Of a stretch of DNA of 64,000 nt, positions 2,384-31,480 are shown in pieces. Position numbers and translations under genes: made by a program. This DNA is from a bacterium (lineage in GTDB: Bacteria > BMS3Abin14). The first letter of the stretch is position 1, and every line of letters starts with the position of its first letter. The stretch covers positions 1,579,404 through 1,643,403 of the forward strand of contig CP070719.1 in the NCBI GenBank assembly GCA_020350725.1. The letters run 5' to 3'. The notes below the pieces were generated by a model. That model did not search any database and was not told the origin of the DNA. It saw nothing but the letters and a program-made list of their open reading frames with translations.

Positions 2384-2812
2384 ATGCCAGGCATTGAGAG
2401 AACCCTGTCGATCGTTAAGCCCGACGGAGTGGAAAAGGGAGTCATCGGCGATGTCCTCACCAGGTTCGAGAGGGCAGGCCTGAAGATCGTGGCCGCCAGG
2501 ATGGTACAGCTTTCGGTCTCTGAGGCGGGCGGCTTCTATACAGTGCACAGGGAGCGACCCTTCTACGGGGAACTGAAGGAATACATGGCATCCGGCCCTA
2601 TCCTCGTACTGGTGCTGGAGGGGGAGAACGCCGTAACCATGACCAGGGAGATCATGGGGGCCACGGATCCCCGTGAGGCCGCTCCCGGCACGATTCGGGC
2701 CGATCATGCGGAGAGCATTGAGAGGAATGTCGTTCACGGTTCCGATTCGCCGGAATCGGCGGCCTTCGAGATCCCTTACTTCTTCCCGGAGATTGAGGTC
2801 TATTCCTATTGA
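2384..2812 (+). CDS. ndk: nucleoside diphosphate kinase
   Basis: [11 protein letters not shown]...NVVHGSDS matches NDK across its full length. The internal ATG at 2384 is preceded by AAAGGAGAG, so the ORF-track start at 2351 is probably too far upstream. Confidence 0.9.
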
Positions 2813-2962
2813 AAGGGTTACAGCAGTCAGGTTACCGATGGTCAGAACACGGAAGGATGACCATATACGCAGAGATAGATCCGGTCTCAGGCAAAGACCT
2901 CCATCGTCGCCTGCTATTGCCCGGGACGGATGACTGGTGTCCTTCGGGATACTGAATGACTT

Positions 2963-4015
2963 ATGATGAAACGGAACTTCTTCGACCTGAAATTGAGTGA
3001 CCTGTCGGGGGTCCTCTCCGACATGGACCCGAAACCCTTCCGCCTCGGCCAGGTCCTCCGTTGGGCCTATGTCATGGGCGCAGACGGGTTCGATCTCATG
3101 ACGGACATGCCCAAGGACCTGAGGGATAAGCTCGACGAAGTCCTCGACCTGAGTCCCATGGCCGTCCTCGATGAACTTAGGTCCCGGGACGGTAGCGTGA
3201 AATGGCTTTACGGCCTTCACGACGGCGAGCTGGTGGAGTCGGTCATGATCCGGGAGGAGGGTCACAATACCTTATGCGTGTCCACCCAGGCGGGCTGCGG
3301 CATGGGATGCACCTTCTGTGAAACCGCAACCGTCGGTCTGAGGAGAAACCTCTCCCTGGGAGAGATCACGGCCCAGGTGGCCTACGCCATTCGAACCCTG
3401 GAGGGCCGAAACAGGCTCAGGAACCTCGTGTTTATGGGCATGGGCGAGCCCCTGAAGAACCTCGACGCCCTCGTCCCGGCCCTTGAGAACATCCTCGACC
3501 CCTCAGGCTTCGACTACAGCCCCAGGAGGGTAACCGTCTCCACATGCGGTTGGGTTCCCGGGATCGTTCGTCTGGCCAAGGAAGGCCTGGGTGTGAACCT
3601 CGCCATCTCTCTGAATGCGCCCGATGATTCCATTCGGGACCTTCTCATGCCGGTCAACAGGAAATATCCCCTCGCTCAACTGATGGAGGCAGTCCGGGCC
3701 TATCCCCTTAGGCCGCGCCAGCGGATCACTTTCGAGTACGTCATCATCGGCGGGATCAACGACAGTGACGAACACGCCCTGAAGGTCGCCGGGCTTCTCA
3801 GAGGCATACCCAGCAAGATCAATCTGATATCCTACAACGAGACCTCCGCCCGGTTCAGAAAGCCGGAGGAGGGGCGAATAGAGGGTTTTCAGAGGGTTCT
3901 CCTGTCCCGGGGTTGTCTGGCGACCATTCGCCGGAGCAGGGGTGAGGAGATCGGTGCCGCATGCGGTCAACTCAGAGCCCTTTCCAAAGGAACGGTCCAT
4001 GCCGGAGAAAAATAA
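2963..4015 (+). CDS. rlmN: 23S rRNA/tRNA m2A methyltransferase RlmN (radical SAM)
   Basis: CVSTQAGCGMGCTFCETA radical-SAM cysteine motif. Length and overall similarity fit the RlmN/Cfr family. ndk-rlmN synteny is as in many proteobacteria. Confidence 0.88.
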   Translation: MMKRNFFDLKLSDLSGVLSDMDPKPFRLGQVLRWAYVMGADGFDLMTDMPKDLRDKLDEVLDLSPMAVLDELRSRDGSVKWLYGLHDGELVESVMIREEGHNTLCVSTQAGCGMGCTFCETATVGLRRNLSLGEITAQVAYAIRTLEGRNRLRNLVFMGMGEPLKNLDALVPALENILDPSGFDYSPRRVTVSTCGWVPGIVRLAKEGLGVNLAISLNAPDDSIRDLLMPVNRKYPLAQLMEAVRAYPLRPRQRITFEYVIIGGINDSDEHALKVAGLLRGIPSKINLISYNETSARFRKPEEGRIEGFQRVLLSRGCLATIRRSRGEEIGAACGQLRALSKGTVHAGEK

Positions 4016-5006
4016 GAAAAGGGCACGGAAGCCCGATCCCAAGAGGCCCGACAAGGTCGTCGAACCCGACGAGATCCTCACCGATGACACCGTTACGGAA
4101 GGCTCGGACGAGATAGCCGTTGATGGCCGGGAGGAATCGACTGTCAGCCGAAAGCCCGTTGCCTACGACCCCATCGGCGCCTATTACCAGGAAATCAGAC
4201 ACTACCCGGTTCTGACCAGGGAGGAAGAGAAGGAATTGGCCATCAGCTACCTTGAGGATGGCGAGGTTGACGCAGCCTACAGCCTGGTCACCTCAAACCT
4301 TCGCCTTGTCATCAAGATCGCCATGGAGTACCGGCGCCTCTGGAAGGAGATCGTCGATCTGATCCAGGAGGGGAACGTCGGCCTCATGCAGGCTGTCAAG
4401 AAATACGACCCCTATCGCGGCGTCCGCTTCTCCTCCTATGCAGCATGGTGGATCCGGGCCTACATCATAAGATACATCATGAACAACACCAGAATGGTTA
4501 AGATCGGAACGACCCAGGCCCAGCGGACCCTCTATTTTCAGATGGGACGGGAAAGAGAGCGGCTCAGGCGGATGGGGATCGAGCCCGACAGCAAGGCCAT
4601 TGCCAAATCCCTGAGCGTCAAGGAGTCGGAAGTGGAAGAGATGGCAAAGCGTTTGCGGGGGGGCGACGTATCCCTGGACGCGACGCTGGGGGGTATGGAC
4701 AGCGATTTTACCCTTCTCGAAGCCCTTCCGGCTCCCCAGCCGGGCGCCGACGAGATCGTGGCAGACGCACAGGCCAGGAGCGTGTACCTCGAGAAACTGG
4801 CCGAATATGTGGCGGGACTTTCGGAAAGGGACAAAAAGATCTTCACTTCCCGGTGGATGAGGGACGACCCGCTCACCCTCCAGGAGATCGGGGAGCAGTT
4901 GGGCGTCACTCGGGAGAGGGTTCGTCAGCTGGAGGCAAGAATTCTGAAGAACCTGAGAAAGCACCTTGAGGGAGAGGGACTCAGTGCGGAAGACTTTTTC
5001 GCATAG
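3999..5006 (+). CDS. rpoH: RNA polymerase sigma-32 factor (RpoH-like)
   Basis: Sigma-70 regions 2-4 are present. An RpoH-box-like segment VKIGTTQAQRTLYFQMGRE corresponds to E. coli VKVATTKAQRKLFFNLRK. There is a basic, low-complexity N-terminal extension. The likely start is the ATG at 3999 inside the 3942 ORF, which overlaps the end of rlmN. Confidence 0.75.
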   Translation: MPEKNKKRARKPDPKRPDKVVEPDEILTDDTVTEGSDEIAVDGREESTVSRKPVAYDPIGAYYQEIRHYPVLTREEEKELAISYLEDGEVDAAYSLVTSNLRLVIKIAMEYRRLWKEIVDLIQEGNVGLMQAVKKYDPYRGVRFSSYAAWWIRAYIIRYIMNNTRMVKIGTTQAQRTLYFQMGRERERLRRMGIEPDSKAIAKSLSVKESEVEEMAKRLRGGDVSLDATLGGMDSDFTLLEALPAPQPGADEIVADAQARSVYLEKLAEYVAGLSERDKKIFTSRWMRDDPLTLQEIGEQLGVTRERVRQLEARILKNLRKHLEGEGLSAEDFFA

Positions 5007-6459
5007 GGCCATTACAGGGCAGAGGGCCGCCTTTCAAATCCTGGTCCTGGCCGGAGCGTTCCTGCTCGGGGTATCTATCAACGGCCAGACGTGGGCCGAC
5101 GACTTGGCATCCCTCCGGGAAACCAGTGACGCTTTCGTGCAGATCAGCAGAAAGGTCACGCCTTCTGTGGTGAATATCAAGACCTTCCGAAAGGTCGGGG
5201 GCCGGGGATATGACCTCAGCGACAGGGTTTTCGGCGACATGCTCGAGCCCTTCAGAGAATTCTTCGGCCGGGATTTTACCGAAAGGTTTTTCGGTACTCC
5301 CGATGAAAGAATGGTCCAGCAGGGCCTCGGATCGGGAGTCATCGTCAGGGACGAAGGAGTCATCCTGACGAACAACCACGTGATCCGAGGTGCGGATGAG
5401 ATCCTCGTGACCCTCGGAGACAGGACGGAGCTCAAAGCCCGGGTGATCGGGAGCGATCCCAGGACCGACATCGCTGTCCTCAGGCTTCCGGAGGGAACCT
5501 ATCCTTCCGCCGTGCTCGGCGACTCGGACGCCATCGAGGTCGGTGAGTGGGTGATCGCCATCGGAAACCCCTTCGGCCTCGGTCAGAGCGTCACCGTGGG
5601 GGTGGTGAGCGCCAAGGGGAGAGCCAACGTGGGTGTGGCGGACCTGGAGGATTTTATCCAGACGGACGCAGCCATCAACCCGGGCAACAGCGGCGGCCCG
5701 CTGATCGATCTGGACGGCAGGATTGTGGGTATCAACACGGCCATTTTCAGCCGCAGTGGAGGATATCAGGGAATCGGTTTCGCCGTACCCGTCAATATGG
5801 CCAGGGCCGTCATGAAGAGTCTCCTCAAGACCGGCCGAATCGTCCGTTCGGACCTCGGGATAAGGGTTCAGGGTGCCACGGAAGCTCTCCTCACCGCCCT
5901 CGGGGCTGGCCGCACCAGCGGCGTGATCGTCAGTGAGGTCATCCCCCAGGGGGTCGGTGATGAGGCGGGTATCCTCAGGGGCGATCTGATCACCCGAATC
6001 AAGGGCCGGGAGATCCGGGACACCGATTCCTACTACCGTATCGTCAGCCTGCTTCCCATAGGGGAGGAGGTGCCGGTGGTGGTCATGCGGGACGGACTTC
6101 CATTGACGGTTATGGTCAAGGTGGGAGAACTACCCTCCCGTCCCCAGGACACGTCCATTAGACTGCGAACGGCCCTGGGTTTCTCCGTCGAGGAGCTCAC
6201 CGAGGAAAATGCGGAGAGGTTGGGGTACCGGTACGACAGCGGGGTCCTGATAACCAGGGTTGTGCGGATGGGTCAGGCTGACCGGTCCGGCCTTGAGCCG
6301 GGGGATCTCATCATCGGTTTGAACGACGCCCGGTCTCCCGACCTGGATACCTTCCGTGAGTTGTTCGAGGGCATTGACTGGGGAGAAGAAGTCAGATTGG
6401 TCGTCAAGAGGGCCGGCAGGACCTTCACGGTGACCATGGTCCTCAGGCAGGAGGGTTAG
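4966..6459 (+). CDS. degP: periplasmic serine endoprotease DegP/HtrA (trypsin domain plus 2 PDZ)
   Basis: Signal peptide, catalytic GNSGGPL motif, His/Asp context, and two PDZ-like C-terminal domains. The start is non-ATG (TTG at 4966 or GTG at 4984) and overlaps the end of rpoH. An rpoH-degP arrangement is logical for a heat-shock regulon. Confidence 0.88.
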   Translation: MRERDSVRKTFSHRAITGQRAAFQILVLAGAFLLGVSINGQTWADDLASLRETSDAFVQISRKVTPSVVNIKTFRKVGGRGYDLSDRVFGDMLEPFREFFGRDFTERFFGTPDERMVQQGLGSGVIVRDEGVILTNNHVIRGADEILVTLGDRTELKARVIGSDPRTDIAVLRLPEGTYPSAVLGDSDAIEVGEWVIAIGNPFGLGQSVTVGVVSAKGRANVGVADLEDFIQTDAAINPGNSGGPLIDLDGRIVGINTAIFSRSGGYQGIGFAVPVNMARAVMKSLLKTGRIVRSDLGIRVQGATEALLTALGAGRTSGVIVSEVIPQGVGDEAGILRGDLITRIKGREIRDTDSYYRIVSLLPIGEEVPVVVMRDGLPLTVMVKVGELPSRPQDTSIRLRTALGFSVEELTEENAERLGYRYDSGVLITRVVRMGQADRSGLEPGDLIIGLNDARSPDLDTFRELFEGIDWGEEVRLVVKRAGRTFTVTMVLRQEG

Positions 6460-28815: not shown

Positions 28816-30039
28816 TCACACGCTCCTCCTCACCCCCCTCGGCCGCCAGGACGGCGGGATGATTCCGTTCGATCCACGCAGGTCCGGCAACTGGTCCGCA
28901 TACATGGCGGAGAACTCCCCGTACCGGTCATTGATAAGATCGAGGGCCCCCTGCAGGGAGTCCTCTTCTCTGTCGGCGGGGAAGAGGGATCCCTGCAGGC
29001 AGCCGAACCGGAGGTGGCTCAGTGAGATCCCCAGGAGGCGGATGGGCCTTACGATGGATACCGAATCCAGAATGGCCGACGCTGATCGGTAGATCCGGCT
29101 GGTGGTCCTGATCGGATGGGCCAGCGTCATCTGCCTCGAAAAGGTGGTGAAATCCCGGTAGCGTACGGTCAGTGTCACCCTGTTTCCGGCACAGTCGTGA
29201 CGGCGCGCCCTCCGTCCGACCATCTCCGAGAGGGTCAGGAGAACCCGTCGCGCGGTGACAAGGTCGGTGACATCGCGGGGCAGGGTTGCCGAATGTCCGA
29301 TGCTCTTGACCTTTTCGTTGCCCGCCCCCAGGGGCACGACGGGGGAATCCTCCTCTCCTCGTCCCATTCTCGAAAGGGTGTGTCCCAGGACACCGAATTC
29401 ACGGACCAGGATCTGCAGCGGGAAACGTCCCAACTGGCCGCAGGTCGAAATGCCCATGGATCCCAGACGGCGTTCGGTCTCCGGACCGATGCCGCACAGC
29501 TTTCCCACCGGCATGCTTTCCATGAGGTCCCTTACGTCGCCAGGGGCAAGGACCGACAGTCCATCGGGTTTTCTCCGGCCGCCGACCAGTTTTGCCAGCA
29601 GCTTGTTGGGACCGATCCCCACGGAACAGGTGAGGCCGGTCTCCTCCCGAATCCGTTCCTTGATCCTCCCCCCGAGGGTCTCAGCCCCCCCGAAACGGTT
29701 CAGATCGGTGGTCACATCCAGAAAGGCCTCATCGACGGAATAGGGCTCCACGAGAGGGGTGAAAGATTCAAGGATATCGATGATCATGGCCGAGACGTGA
29801 CTGTACTTCCGGTGATCACACCGGACTATGACAAGGGCGGGACACAGTTTCAGGCCCTGACCGAGAGCCATGCCCGTCCTGACGCCGAACTCCCTCGCCG
29901 CATAGGATGCGGTGGTGATGATGGTCCTCTGTCCCGGCCCGGCCACTGCCACCGGTTTGCCCCTCAGGGAAGGGTTGTCCACCTCTTCCACCGAGGCGAA
30001 GAAGGCATCCATGTCCACGTGGAGGATCACCCGGTTCAT
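28816..30039 (-). CDS. dinB: DNA polymerase IV (Y-family)
   Basis: N-terminal HVDMDAFFASVE catalytic motif. Full Y-family polymerase length (407 aa). Third gene of the lexA operon. Confidence 0.9.
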   Translation of the reverse strand: MNRVILHVDMDAFFASVEEVDNPSLRGKPVAVAGPGQRTIITTASYAAREFGVRTGMALGQGLKLCPALVIVRCDHRKYSHVSAMIIDILESFTPLVEPYSVDEAFLDVTTDLNRFGGAETLGGRIKERIREETGLTCSVGIGPNKLLAKLVGGRRKPDGLSVLAPGDVRDLMESMPVGKLCGIGPETERRLGSMGISTCGQLGRFPLQILVREFGVLGHTLSRMGRGEEDSPVVPLGAGNEKVKSIGHSATLPRDVTDLVTARRVLLTLSEMVGRRARRHDCAGNRVTLTVRYRDFTTFSRQMTLAHPIRTTSRIYRSASAILDSVSIVRPIRLLGISLSHLRFGCLQGSLFPADREEDSLQGALDLINDRYGEFSAMYADQLPDLRGSNGIIPPSWRPRGVRRSV

Positions 30040-30290
30040 ACCAGTTGCGCCACCTTCTCCAGGTACCAGGTGAGGGCCTCGCCGTCGAGGACGAGCTCAT
30101 ACAGGTCGGAACCGTCCGTCACCGTGAAGTGGTGGAGGATAGCGGAACCCCTCCTCTCCGACCAGGAGAAGGTGATCCCTGAAATACGGTATCTCCTTTT
30201 CCTCCAGATAAACCAGGCCGGACGCATTTTCCCGCCCGCACCGAAGACGGCGCCCACCACGACCCGCTCCTGGATCTCCTGGGCCATCAC
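30036..30290 (-). CDS. hypothetical 84-aa protein, translationally coupled between lexA and dinB
   Basis: 4-nt overlaps with both the lexA stop and the dinB start. Coding-like composition. No family recognised (MMAQEIQERVVVGAVFGAGG...HHFTVTDGSDLYELVLDGEALTWYLEKV). Confidence 0.55.
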   Translation of the reverse strand: MMAQEIQERVVVGAVFGAGGKMRPAWFIWRKRRYRISGITFSWSERRGSAILHHFTVTDGSDLYELVLDGEALTWYLEKVAQLV

Positions 30291-31057
30291 CGGGCGTTTC
30301 CCCCTTTGAGGATGCGGATAACGGCCTCGACCCTGCCCGCGATCCTGGTTGTCCCGGCATCCTCTCCGGTGAGGACGATGGCCGGGAATTCCGGATTGGC
30401 CGCCTCGAGAGCGATCCCGTCCCGGGTCCTTCGGAATCTCTTCAGGGTGGCTTCGTCGCCCACCACCGCGACCACGATGTCGCCGTCATATACTGTGGCC
30501 TGCGGTCTGACGAGGGCCAGATCCCCCGGCAAGATCTGTTCTCCCCGCATGCTGTTTCCCTTCACCCTGAGGAGAAAGTGATCCTGCCCAGCCAGGTTTT
30601 CATCGAGGTGGATGTAATCCTCCACCTCCTCGGCGGCAAGATCGAGGGCTCCGGCGGCCACCGATCCGACCACCGGAACAGGCACACCACCGGGCCCGTC
30701 GAGGGGTGAGGGGAACCGGGACAAAATCTCCAGGCCACGGGAGATACCGGGAATCCTCCTGATGAGCCCTTTCCGCTCCAGCGCCTCCAGGTGCTTGGCC
30801 GCAGCCCGCGGACCGGAGAGGTTCAGGTGATGGGCCAGTTCACGAACAGTGGGGGGATAGCCGTTCTCGGAAAGGAAGGTCCTGATATATGCCAGGACCT
30901 GTTGCTGTCTGGGTGTGAGTTCGTGCAAAAGGCCGCCCTCCCAATTATCAGATCTCCGACTCCATATCCGACAGGAATTCAAAGTCCACAGCCTGCCATC
31001 CGACTTTTCCACCGCTGCTATCAGCGAAGTTGGAAGCTTCACTTCAGGTGGGTCCAA
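30287..31057 (-). CDS. lexA: LexA repressor
   Basis: Winged-HTH LTPRQQQVLAYI...TVRELA. S24 peptidase catalytic Ser in GNSM and the Lys region (ATLKRF). Ala-Gly cleavage site (VAAGAL). ORF-track start is TTG at 31057. A more LexA-typical start is the in-frame TTG at 30928 (MHELTPRQQ), giving about 214 aa. Confidence 0.88.
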   Translation of the reverse strand: MDPPEVKLPTSLIAAVEKSDGRLWTLNSCRIWSRRSDNWEGGLLHELTPRQQQVLAYIRTFLSENGYPPTVRELAHHLNLSGPRAAAKHLEALERKGLIRRIPGISRGLEILSRFPSPLDGPGGVPVPVVGSVAAGALDLAAEEVEDYIHLDENLAGQDHFLLRVKGNSMRGEQILPGDLALVRPQATVYDGDIVVAVVGDEATLKRFRRTRDGIALEAANPEFPAIVLTGEDAGTTRIAGRVEAVIRILKGGNAR

Positions 31058-31127
31058 AATCCAAGATGAACAGAACTATGAATTAGGCCTGGCCGAAATC
31101 GGGGATTTTGGGTATTTACTTGACACT

Positions 31128-31172
31128 CGGTACTTTATACCTTGAACTGGCTTAAGGTATACTTATGTATAC
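31128..31172. promoter_or_regulatory. candidate LexA operator(s): GGTAC-TTTA-TACC and perfect palindrome GGTATAC-TTAT-GTATACC
   Basis: Two palindromic GGTA...TACC motifs at 31128-31140 and 31155-31172 in the divergent lexA/smc spacer, 100-230 bp upstream of lexA. They do not match the E. coli or published Geobacter consensus, so the assignment is by position only. Confidence 0.35.
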
Positions 31173-31480
31173 CACATGGGGTCTTAGAGGTAAAGAGGCA
31201 TTCGGGTCGGCAAGGCCCTTTCGGTTTCTTTACAACGGACCCGTTAAGTGATAGAGTTTGGCATCAAAGCGTCAAGTAGGACTCAACGGTTACGGGAATC
31301 AGCCCCCGGCCGGCTCCCTCCGCGGGCAGACTCGTCCGGCGGTGTCTGTCCGGTGCCGGTGTTCCGCCGGCGGAAGCGACGGGCCGGGGCATGTGAAGGG
31401 GCTCCTCTTTCCGACGGGCGTAATCCCCTTTGCCGCACCGTCTGCACGGGCACGTTCGGGAGCATTGTCGAGAATATGTC

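Follow-up and report, generated by a model that had tools for sequence, protein, structure and literature searches.

The window, as we call the whole 64 kb stretch of DNA that was analysed, carries lexA, orf84 and dinB, all on its minus strand. The genes and the predicted operator of this operon are as follows.

31156-31173, strand not given: predicted LexA operator, the palindrome GGTATACATAAGTATACC on the minus strand, with GGTA/TACC arms of the Geobacter type
30287-30928, minus strand: lexA, SOS repressor of 213 aa with a TTG start (longest open frame 31057-30287, 256 aa)
30036-30290, minus strand: orf84, 84 aa from GTG, predicted stand-alone ImuB-C domain protein, GSU0042-like and related to Pfam DUF6504
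28816-30039, minus strand: dinB/polY, 407 aa, apparently active Y-family DNA polymerase (predicted from motifs) of the GeoPolY-like group

The coordinates bear out the 4-nt overlap that a sequence-only reading of this DNA had described at each junction, and the peptides quoted there are present. At the lexA/orf84 junction, the lexA stop codon TGA (30289-30287) overlaps the GTG start of orf84 by 4 nt; orf84 may instead start at an ATG one codon further on (30287), as in the NCBI annotation (83 aa), which would reduce the overlap to 1 nt. At the orf84/dinB junction, the orf84 stop and the dinB ATG share the letters ATGA, a 4-nt overlap. No imuA or dnaE2 was found within the lexA-orf84-dinB operon. 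The window has a GC content of 59% and contains many overlapping shadow ORFs, such as that at 29116-30309 on the plus strand (397 aa).

LexA was identified by the TIGR00498 lexA equivalog (E 6.6e-58, 195.7 bits vs a cutoff of 111) and by the Pfam domains LexA_DNA_bind and Peptidase_S24. In the 256-aa frame LexA_DNA_bind starts only at residue 46 and the extra 43 aa are not LexA-like; gene callers pick the TTG at 30928, which gives 213 aa, also on independent contigs, and a GGGAGGG Shine-Dalgarno sequence precedes this TTG. The elements of self-cleavage are present: VAAGAL at aa 90-95 contains an Ala-Gly site, GNSM (aa 124-127) supplies the Ser, and TLKRF (aa 161-165) supplies the Lys.

The palindrome at 31156-31173 is a candidate Geobacter-type LexA operator, predicted from its letters. 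It is the sole match to GGTWNNCNNNNGNNWACC in the 64 kb window, where 0.15 matches are expected, and it lies about 230 nt upstream of the lexA start, which is unusually distant. The nearest related locus has GGTATACATATGGATACC at -292, within a conserved block, and 10 further related loci carry GGT(T/A)nnCnnnnGnn(A/T)ACC 32-66 nt upstream of lexA. Neither a search for the strict palindrome GTATACN4GTATAC nor promoter and terminator scans added anything to this single candidate. The Geobacter LexA box consensus, GGTTN2CN4GN3ACC, reportedly comes from Jara et al. 2003. A passage of PMC6511836 credits the damage induction of the G. sulfurreducens operon to Jara 2003.

Conservation, family and fold of the orf84 protein

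Results of homology searches showed that orf84 is a genuine conserved gene. Its homologues amount to 442 cluster representatives at E<=1e-3 (82 at E<=1e-10), nearly all of them 80-100 aa long and mostly 80-86 aa, and its GC3 is 0.81, vs 0.74 and 0.76 in the neighbour genes. In a 116-sequence alignment W75 is invariant, and V12, F16, P24, F27, G48 and L77 each recur in 90% or more; a basic hairpin, RPAWFIWRKRRYR (aa 23-35), contains R23, R30 and R32. The Geotalea uraniireducens protein GURASL_19280, itself encoded in a lexA-X-dinB locus, is 46-48% identical to the orf84 protein, and G. anodireducens ANA41728.1 is 44% identical (E 4e-10). A word-indexed homology search with the single orf84 protein as query found only itself, and the same kind of search with the family profile returned 20 proteins only and no ImuB. 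Two tblastn matches on Streptomyces plasmids were rejected as chance.

Gene order was surveyed in 49 loci of other species, a sample that was seeded with Geobacter-like sequences (a 2-sequence alignment) and is hence biased, and that covers Geobacteraceae, Desulfuromonadales, Deferribacterales, Elusimicrobia, Nitrospirae and Clostridia. lexA lies directly upstream of the orf84 homologue in 47 of these loci, with a spacing of typically 3-4 nt or an overlap, and dinB follows within 200 nt downstream in 40; the ATGA 4-nt overlap recurs in 19 of the 49. The order lexA-X-dinB was also seen in Geotalea, Bipolaricaulota and metagenomes. In 5/49 loci lexA-imuB-C stands without an adjacent polymerase gene, so the partner may be encoded elsewhere or the role may be independent of a polymerase. 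Apparent LexA-ImuB-C fusions in three loci were rejected, because a stop codon separates the genes. The survey, which the sequence-only reading had proposed, thus found the arrangement conserved across phyla. Its view that the small ORF is translated holds good in the light of the conserved homologues, the conserved gene order and a confident structure model (below), and the SOS-type operon of Geobacter type that it recognised recurs with the same order in 40/49 loci and in the published Geobacter operon.

By sequence comparison, we assign the orf84 protein to the stand-alone ImuB-C family, which was named in 2013 by Aravind et al. with Geobacter GSU0042 as its prototype (PMC3765255) and which corresponds to Pfam DUF6504. 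Homology to Geobacter was measured on the G. uraniireducens and G. anodireducens proteins, and GSU0042 is known via the literature. Against PF20114 (DUF6504) the window protein scored 21.7 bits, below the gathering threshold of 24.2 (E 2.4e-4, residues 4-47 only), and it had no NCBIfam match; 66 of the 116 relatives match DUF6504 at E<=0.01, with a best value of 1.6e-7. The HMM search that had been suggested for this protein therefore gave a family signal through its relatives, and a sub-threshold one for the protein itself.

DUF6504 in turn matches ImuB at aa 430-508 with 31.8 bits, above the gathering threshold, and so represents ImuB's C-terminal domain. C-terminal ImuB fragments named 'protein ImuB' carry PF20114, and it is evident that mainly ImuB-type sequences went into the Pfam model. 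On three proteobacterial ImuB proteins a plain HMM of the orf84 family was marginal (2-3 bits), with the match in the correct position, and a deeper ImuB C-terminal alignment was built for this reason. The hhalign comparison of the orf84 family with 37 ImuB C-termini gave a probability of 88.4% (E 2.8e-6, 73 columns, residues 5-80, the conserved Trp included), vs E 1e-4 when just three ImuB sequences were used. In ImuB, the residue aligned with W75 is the W of RWFLHG, and a conserved Trp and a basic cluster have been described for ImuB-C (PMC3765255). Since the plain HMM barely scores on ImuB, the ImuB link rests on the profile-profile comparison and the Pfam intermediate. The middle protein, for which no family could be named earlier, thus finds its place in ImuB-C/DUF6504. 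It appears to be homologous to the ImuB C-terminal domain, which is essentially the outcome that the sequence-only reading had set against its own case, a domain of a known DinB-like extension. A literature search on the name DUF6504 found no paper, and none of the literature found reports an experiment on any stand-alone ImuB-C protein, the role of which is listed as open in PMC8072749.

The AF2 model on the 116-sequence family alignment reached a pLDDT of 95 and comprises seven beta strands and no helix; the model from the single orf84 sequence reached 49. The structure prediction that had been called for thus describes a seven-strand domain, and the model indicates an all-beta soluble protein without a membrane segment. 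Foldseek of this model against the PDB gave no neighbour at E<1e-3 (TM<0.4), and no known DNA-binding fold was recovered in PDB sequence or structure searches with orf84. Lipocalin- and TbpB-like beta matches from Foldseek were weak (TM<0.4) and non-specific, and Affitin and HoxF, from PDB sequence searches with the protein and the profile, were not meaningful (E>0.1). That no close PDB neighbour was found agrees with the report that ImuB-C is a beta-barrel of novel fold, different in structure from the SH3-like barrel that UmuD' and YqjX have (PMC12926913).

The polymerase and its C-terminal tail

The dinB product matched the NCBIfam Pol IV equivalog NF002677 with 315 bits (cutoff 256) and the Pfam domains IMS, IMS_HHH and IMS_C. 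It keeps the catalytic motifs, HVDMDAFF at aa 7-14 and SVDEAFLD at aa 101-108, and is apparently catalytically active. Three motifs were located in its tail, using an alignment of 23 tails of the group.

28981-28998, minus strand: putative beta-clamp-binding motif LQGSLF (23-tail alignment; group consensus QLPLF)
28897-28959, minus strand: putative RecA-NT-like or DUF4113-like motif SLQGALDLINDRYGEFSAMYA (23-tail alignment and Pfam)
28825-28863, minus strand: extreme C-terminal PolY motif IIPPSWRPRGVRR (group consensus (V/I)ISPAWRPxG(I/V)R)

LQGSLF is read as a putative beta-clamp motif from its position just before the RecA-NT motif, by analogy with ImuB, in which QLPLW is followed by RecA-NT (PMC11791113). 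DUF4113 is the sole Pfam match of the window tail, a weak one (E 0.28); 21/23 group tails match it at E<=1, with a best value of 9.9e-5. The D, N and G of the RecA-NT-like motif are invariant in the 23 tails, the window tail having all three, and a motif of this kind has been described for the GeoPolY-like polymerase group (PMC6511836). In the extreme C-terminal motif each of the residues I, P, W and P is kept by at least 90% of the 23 tails. By analogy with the UmuC tail, which binds UmuD' (PMC6511836), this motif is a candidate docking site for ImuB-C.

Proposed role of the stand-alone ImuB-C protein

We propose that orf84 probably encodes a stand-alone ImuB-C that serves, in a translesion-synthesis polymerase module under LexA control, as the small subunit without catalytic function. 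In the undamaged cell, LexA bound to the palindrome GGTATACATAAGTATACC would repress its own operon. Upon DNA damage, the RecA filament would trigger LexA self-cleavage, for which LexA has the Ala-Gly site and the Ser/Lys dyad, and the three translationally coupled cistrons would then be made together. The Y-family polymerase would be competent, its tail offering in order the beta-clamp motif, the RecA-NT-like motif and the ISPAWRPxG end; ImuB-C would bind the polymerase, most likely at this tail, together with RecA. The resulting PolY-ImuB-C-RecA complex would have its analogue in Pol V (UmuC-UmuD'2-RecA) and be a 'split ImuB' whose polymerase is active; within it, ImuB-C may regulate or target lesion bypass. 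AlphaFold complex models in the literature support PolY/ImuB-C/RecA modules (PMC12926913), and within ImuB the ImuB-C domain stabilises ImuA' binding and has been modelled against the DnaE2 PHP domain, as the chief contact to it (PMC12926913, PMC11791113).

Aravind et al. 2013 proposed a different role for ImuB-C, that of a DNA-binding damage sensor (PMC3765255), which would recognise damaged or stalled-fork DNA and recruit the available repair enzyme without being a stable polymerase subunit. The conserved basic hairpin, WRGxRRR in ImuB, would suit such a sensor, as would the lexA-imuB-C pairs without adjacent dinB and the presence of the family beside Ku/ligase, SplB photolyase and SRAP genes, besides polymerases (PMC3765255). 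However, the PDB searches returned no known DNA-binding fold, ImuB-C in ImuB has been modelled, and partly shown, to contact the ImuA' and DnaE2 proteins, and a gene so tightly coupled in translation to that of the polymerase speaks rather for a stoichiometric partner; we consider the sensor unlikely. A further reading, again by analogy, is rather improbable to us: free-standing ImuB-C may act as a polymerase-switch adaptor in operons that lack dnaE2, bridging the SOS-induced Pol IV-like enzyme to the Pol III alpha PHP domain or to RecA via the ISPAWRPxG tail. Were it true, the lexA-imuB-C-polY cassette would be a minimal 'third kind' of bacterial mutasome.

The orf84 protein might also act on SOS regulation rather than on the polymerase, by modulating LexA cleavage or DNA binding. 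Adjacency to lexA (47/49) is indeed more constant than adjacency to dinB (40-44/49), and the close lexA-X spacing points the same way, but the seeding with Geobacter-like sequences biases this sample, the fusion partner of the homologous domain is the polymerase-like ImuB and not LexA, and ImuB-C also occurs in operons without lexA (PMC6511836). Such a function is very unlikely. The sequence-only reading had offered guesses at function. That of a polymerase accessory factor coincides with the published prediction. That of an SOS-induced division inhibitor, a functional analogue of SulA, YneA or SidA, has as its only argument that, in general, division is a frequent target of small proteins under SOS control; an all-beta soluble model without helix or hydrophobic segment, the lack of any Pfam or NCBIfam match to division-inhibitor families, and a family fused to ImuB and consistently found beside polymerase genes make it highly improbable. 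Finally, the idea that orf84 is a chance untranslated frame, as might be expected in a window of 59% GC with many shadow ORFs, has a negligible chance of being right and is refuted by the conservation data (442 homologues across phyla, conserved position and length, pLDDT 95, GC3 0.81).

Relation to known systems

The lexA-imuB-C-Y-family polymerase operon is already known from Geobacter and its relatives, and the supplement of PMC3765255 gives SRAP-LexA-ImuBC-DinB as a neighbourhood in G. sulfurreducens. The window locus shares with the Geobacter operon an all-beta protein of about 80 aa with conserved Trp and basic residues, an equal gene order, and the tight coupling of lexA and a Y-family polymerase that looks active and has putative clamp and RecA-NT-like motifs. 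Geobacteraceae orthologues are 44-48% identical to the orf84 protein, and the LexA box is of Geobacter type. In contrast to these operons, the host here is an uncultured bacterium (MAG), no SRAP gene lies upstream, whereas G. sulfurreducens has one there, the operator candidate has GGTA/TACC instead of GGTT/AACC arms and lies about 230 nt upstream of lexA, and the clamp motif reads QGSLF instead of QLPLF.

ImuB's C-terminal domain, from the ImuA-ImuB-DnaE2 mutasome, appears homologous, and ImuB runs in the order clamp motif, RecA-NT motif, ImuB-C, which is also that of the predicted elements in the window. The similarity is remote (2-3 bits by plain HMM), and the window ImuB-C is a separate polypeptide, encoded upstream of a polymerase with intact catalytic motifs. 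The ImuY/DnaE2 system (PMC8072749) is likewise under LexA control and has, next to a Y-family protein, a stand-alone ImuB-C of some 80 residues; however, its imuB-C comes after the Y-family gene, the Y-family protein ImuY is predicted to lack activity, and the polymerase is DnaE2. UmuD' of Pol V and YolD/YqjX resemble the orf84 protein as proposed small beta-rich subunits that are LexA-coexpressed with a Y-family polymerase bearing a RecA-NT motif and a conserved tail (PMC6511836, PMC12926913), but they are related to it neither in sequence nor in fold: the orf84 protein has no Pfam Peptidase_S24 or YolD match and, unlike UmuD', no autoproteolytic site.

The discovery value of the locus is low: the family has borne its name since 2013, and a 2019 description of the operon type was followed by a return to it in 2026. 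The orf84 protein is deposited as 'hypothetical protein', and this label, the sub-threshold Pfam score and the lack of an NCBIfam model lead pipelines and naive readers to keep calling it new. Widespread among Geobacter-like bacteria, Deferribacteres and other anaerobes, the PolY-ImuB-C-RecA module would be a type of mutagenic polymerase that DNA damage induces, as predicted, and the invariant polymerase tail motif may offer a concrete handle on the interaction between PolY and ImuB-C.

Operon layout and coding status of orf84

The genes lexA, orf84 and dinB are co-directional on the minus strand of the window, with the following features and flanks.

31057..30287, minus strand: lexA, longest ORF, 256 aa
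30929-31057, minus strand: extra 43 codons at the N-terminal end of the 256-aa lexA ORF, without LexA similarity and skipped by gene callers
30929-31155, minus strand: leader from the predicted LexA box to the lexA start codon, unusually long at ~230 nt
30290..30036, minus strand: orf84, of 84 codons with the GTG start or 83 with the next codon, ATG, as start
30039..28816, minus strand: dinB, 407 aa
28825-28863, minus strand: near-invariant (V/I)ISPAWRPxG(I/V)R end of the polymerase, also found at the dinB 3' ends of the related loci L020-L068
28248-28583, 26912-28144 and 31430-35053, plus strand: small c-type-cytochrome-like protein, dGTPase-like HD protein and SMC, unrelated flanking genes

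The lexA stop and the orf84 GTG share GTGA, a 4-nt coordinate overlap (1 nt with the ATG start), and the orf84 stop overlaps the dinB start by 4 nt (ATGA). Gene order, overlaps and coordinates were thus reproduced as described in the sequence-only reading, except for the lexA start, which had been taken as 31057. The LexA DNA-binding domain starts no earlier than residue 46 of the 256-aa ORF (Pfam), and six further contigs of this organism carry independent calls of a 213-aa product. The start of that product is TTG 30928, which has a GGGAGGG ribosome-binding site in front of it and is probably the true start. The NCBI deposit of orf84 is the 83-codon ATG form ('hypothetical protein JSV26_07595'). 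Because the flanking genes are unrelated and on the opposite strand, the SOS cassette is an isolated three-gene unit here. Several long overlapping ORFs, including one of 397 aa antisense to dinB and orf84 (29116-30309, plus strand), were regarded as non-genic shadow frames in GC-rich coding DNA.

Four lines of evidence indicate that orf84 is a real gene. We scanned 1.84 billion representatives exhaustively with phmmer and obtained 442 homologues at E ≤ 1e-3, of which 82 reached E ≤ 1e-10; nearly all are 80-100 aa long and align end to end. In a 116-sequence alignment, W75 was invariant and V12, F16, P24, F27, G48 and L77 were kept in at least 90%. AlphaFold2 with this alignment predicted seven beta strands and no helix (pLDDT 95, pTM 0.84); the single-sequence model was uninformative. 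Third-position GC was 0.81, similar to the flanking genes.

Relationship of orf84 to the ImuB C-terminus

The middle gene, left unassigned by the sequence-only reading, encodes a stand-alone ImuB-C protein, ImuB's C-terminal domain as a separate small protein, in an operon type described before. Orf84 itself scored 21.7 bits against Pfam DUF6504 (PF20114), below the 24.2 threshold, and had no NCBIfam match; 66 of its 116 relatives matched DUF6504 at E ≤ 0.01. To see what DUF6504 represents, imuA-imuB-dnaE2 cassettes were located on Agrobacterium, Burkholderia and Komagataeibacter plasmids. The extreme ImuB C-terminus (aa 430-508 of 512) matched DUF6504 over threshold (31.8 bits), and a search with it returned hundreds of 'protein ImuB' or 'DUF6504 family protein' entries, all carrying PF20114. 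Profile-profile comparison of the orf84 family with 37 ImuB C-termini gave 88.4% probability (E 2.8e-6, 73 columns), spanning orf84 residues 5-80 with the PxWFxWRG hairpin and C-terminal Trp aligned. A plain HMM comparison with ImuB was only marginal; the relationship is thus consistent though distant. Foldseek of the orf84 model against the PDB gave nothing significant. The sequence-only reading had named homology to a known LexA or DinB extension as a result that would refute it, and homology to a known polymerase extension is what we found.

The relationship is already published: the ImuB-C superfamily was named by Aravind, Anand and Iyer (2013), who took Geobacter sulfurreducens GSU0042 as its prototype and described the domain as ~80 residues, beta-rich, with a conserved C-terminal tryptophan and basic residues; their supplement lists the G. 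sulfurreducens neighbourhood SRAP->LexA->ImuBC->DinB (PMC3765255). Damage induction and co-transcription are attributed to Jara et al. 2003 in PMC6511836. A 2026 survey described PolY/ImuB-C/RecA association modules, backed by AlphaFold complex models, and reported for ImuB-C a beta-barrel without close relatives in the PDB (PMC12926913). The window orf84 is one more ImuB-C orthologue, 44-53% identical to its relatives, from an uncultured lineage.

Conservation of lexA-X-dinB loci

The arrangement, with X the orf84 homologue, recurred in four of four homologue loci (Geotalea uraniireducens, a Bipolaricaulota MAG and two metagenome lineages), with otherwise unrelated neighbours. A scan with one genome per species yielded 49 loci from Geobacteraceae, Desulfuromonadales, Deferribacterales, Elusimicrobia, Nitrospirae and Clostridia MAGs. 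LexA lay directly upstream of X on the same strand in 47 of 49, and dinB followed within 200 nt in 40, of which 19 had the ATGA 4-nt overlap. Non-conservation at such loci, the other refuting outcome named in the sequence-only reading, was thus not what the scan showed. In four loci dinB lay 0.4-3.3 kb downstream, and in five none was present in the fetched flank.

Those without dinB within a 2.3-3.5 kb downstream flank were lexA-imuB-C pairs of Geobacteraceae MAGs (L027, L038, L045, L049, L052). Downstream of the pair, L045 and L038 carry a toxin-antitoxin module (CcdB, or HEPN/MNT nucleotidyltransferase) plus a DUF3375 (JetA, Wadjet) gene, and L027 carries PAP2 and B12/radical-SAM genes on the reverse strand. 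In Pelotalea chapellei (L063), a reverse-strand gene (3930-5855, minus strand; 641 aa, glucodextranase-B and Ig-like domains) between imuB-C and dinB breaks up the usual operon. A Nitrospirae MAG (L053) showed the permuted order imuB-C, dinB, lexA, with lexA ~150 nt 3' of dinB. Geobacter anodireducens plasmid pSD (L018) carries lexA-imuB-C-dinB at 2392-4462, with dinB in two frames (break at ~4079) and probably a pseudogene. Pelobacter propionicus pPRO1 (L019) has an unannotated ImuB-C-like ORF at 3001-3189 (35% identity, E 1e-4), with an IHF-alpha gene just downstream.

Polymerase tail, proposed role and predicted operator

The window LexA is a full equivalog match with the Ala-Gly site and Ser/Lys dyad, and the dinB product (PolY) scores as Pol IV with its acidic catalytic motifs kept. 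Past the little finger, PolY has a 60-residue tail with, in order, QGSLF as a clamp-type motif (QLPLF in the group consensus), a RecA-NT-like segment ALDLINDRYGEF and the ISPAWRPxG-type end. DUF4113 was the sole Pfam match of this tail, and weak (E 0.28); 21 of 23 tails of the polymerase group matched it (best 9.9e-5). No mention of the end motif was seen in the passages of the cited papers that the analysis covered. Three Elusimicrobia- and Clostridia-type loci (L023, L024, L033) had another tail, ILARGLWAKTF. Within ImuB, the order is clamp motif, RecA-NT, ImuB-C (PMC11791113); given this shared order, the window operon resembles an ImuB that has been split, with a polymerase part predicted to be still active.

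In the reading with the best support, orf84 is a small subunit, itself without catalytic activity, of a PolY-ImuB-C-RecA translesion polymerase that LexA represses and damage induces. Our own computations showed which family and fold class orf84 belongs to, that the operon is conserved and which motifs the polymerase carries, and they gave the operator candidate; damage induction and co-transcription in Geobacter, the protein-contact roles of ImuB-C inside ImuB and the AlphaFold-supported complexes come from the literature. ImuB-C would bind the window polymerase and may affect its activity, plausibly docking at the ISPAWRPxG tail as the UmuC tail binds UmuD'. We found no experiment on a stand-alone ImuB-C in the literature.

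Among the rival readings, the likeliest has orf84 act as a sensor of DNA damage, as first proposed in 2013, which fits the basic hairpin and the family's adjacency also to non-polymerase repair genes. Second comes a LexA-directed regulator, suggested by the linkage to lexA, which varied least of all features in a biased sample of loci. Third, a division inhibitor had been suggested in the sequence-only reading, but support was looked for and none was found. A chance ORF, ranked last, is refuted. There is little new in the window operon, and the remaining interest lies in the biochemical role of ImuB-C.

The only window match to a relaxed Geobacter LexA-box pattern was GGTATACATAAGTATACC at 31156-31173 (0.15 expected by chance), ~230 nt upstream of the lexA start, a candidate operator at which LexA may bind. 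The consensus box of Jara et al. 2003 is reportedly GGTTN2CN4GN3ACC. No promoter was assignable with confidence in the 30929-31155 leader. The nearest relative, L020 (62% DinB identity), has a similarly long leader, with GGTATACATATGGATACC at -292 inside a conserved block. In Geobacter-type loci the box is closer, at 32-66 nt upstream, and ten other loci have GGT(T/A)nnCnnnnGnn(A/T)ACC at -32 to -66. Minor peculiarities of the window instance are its GGTA/TACC operator arms, the long leader and the absence of the SRAP neighbour that lies upstream of the cassette in G. sulfurreducens.
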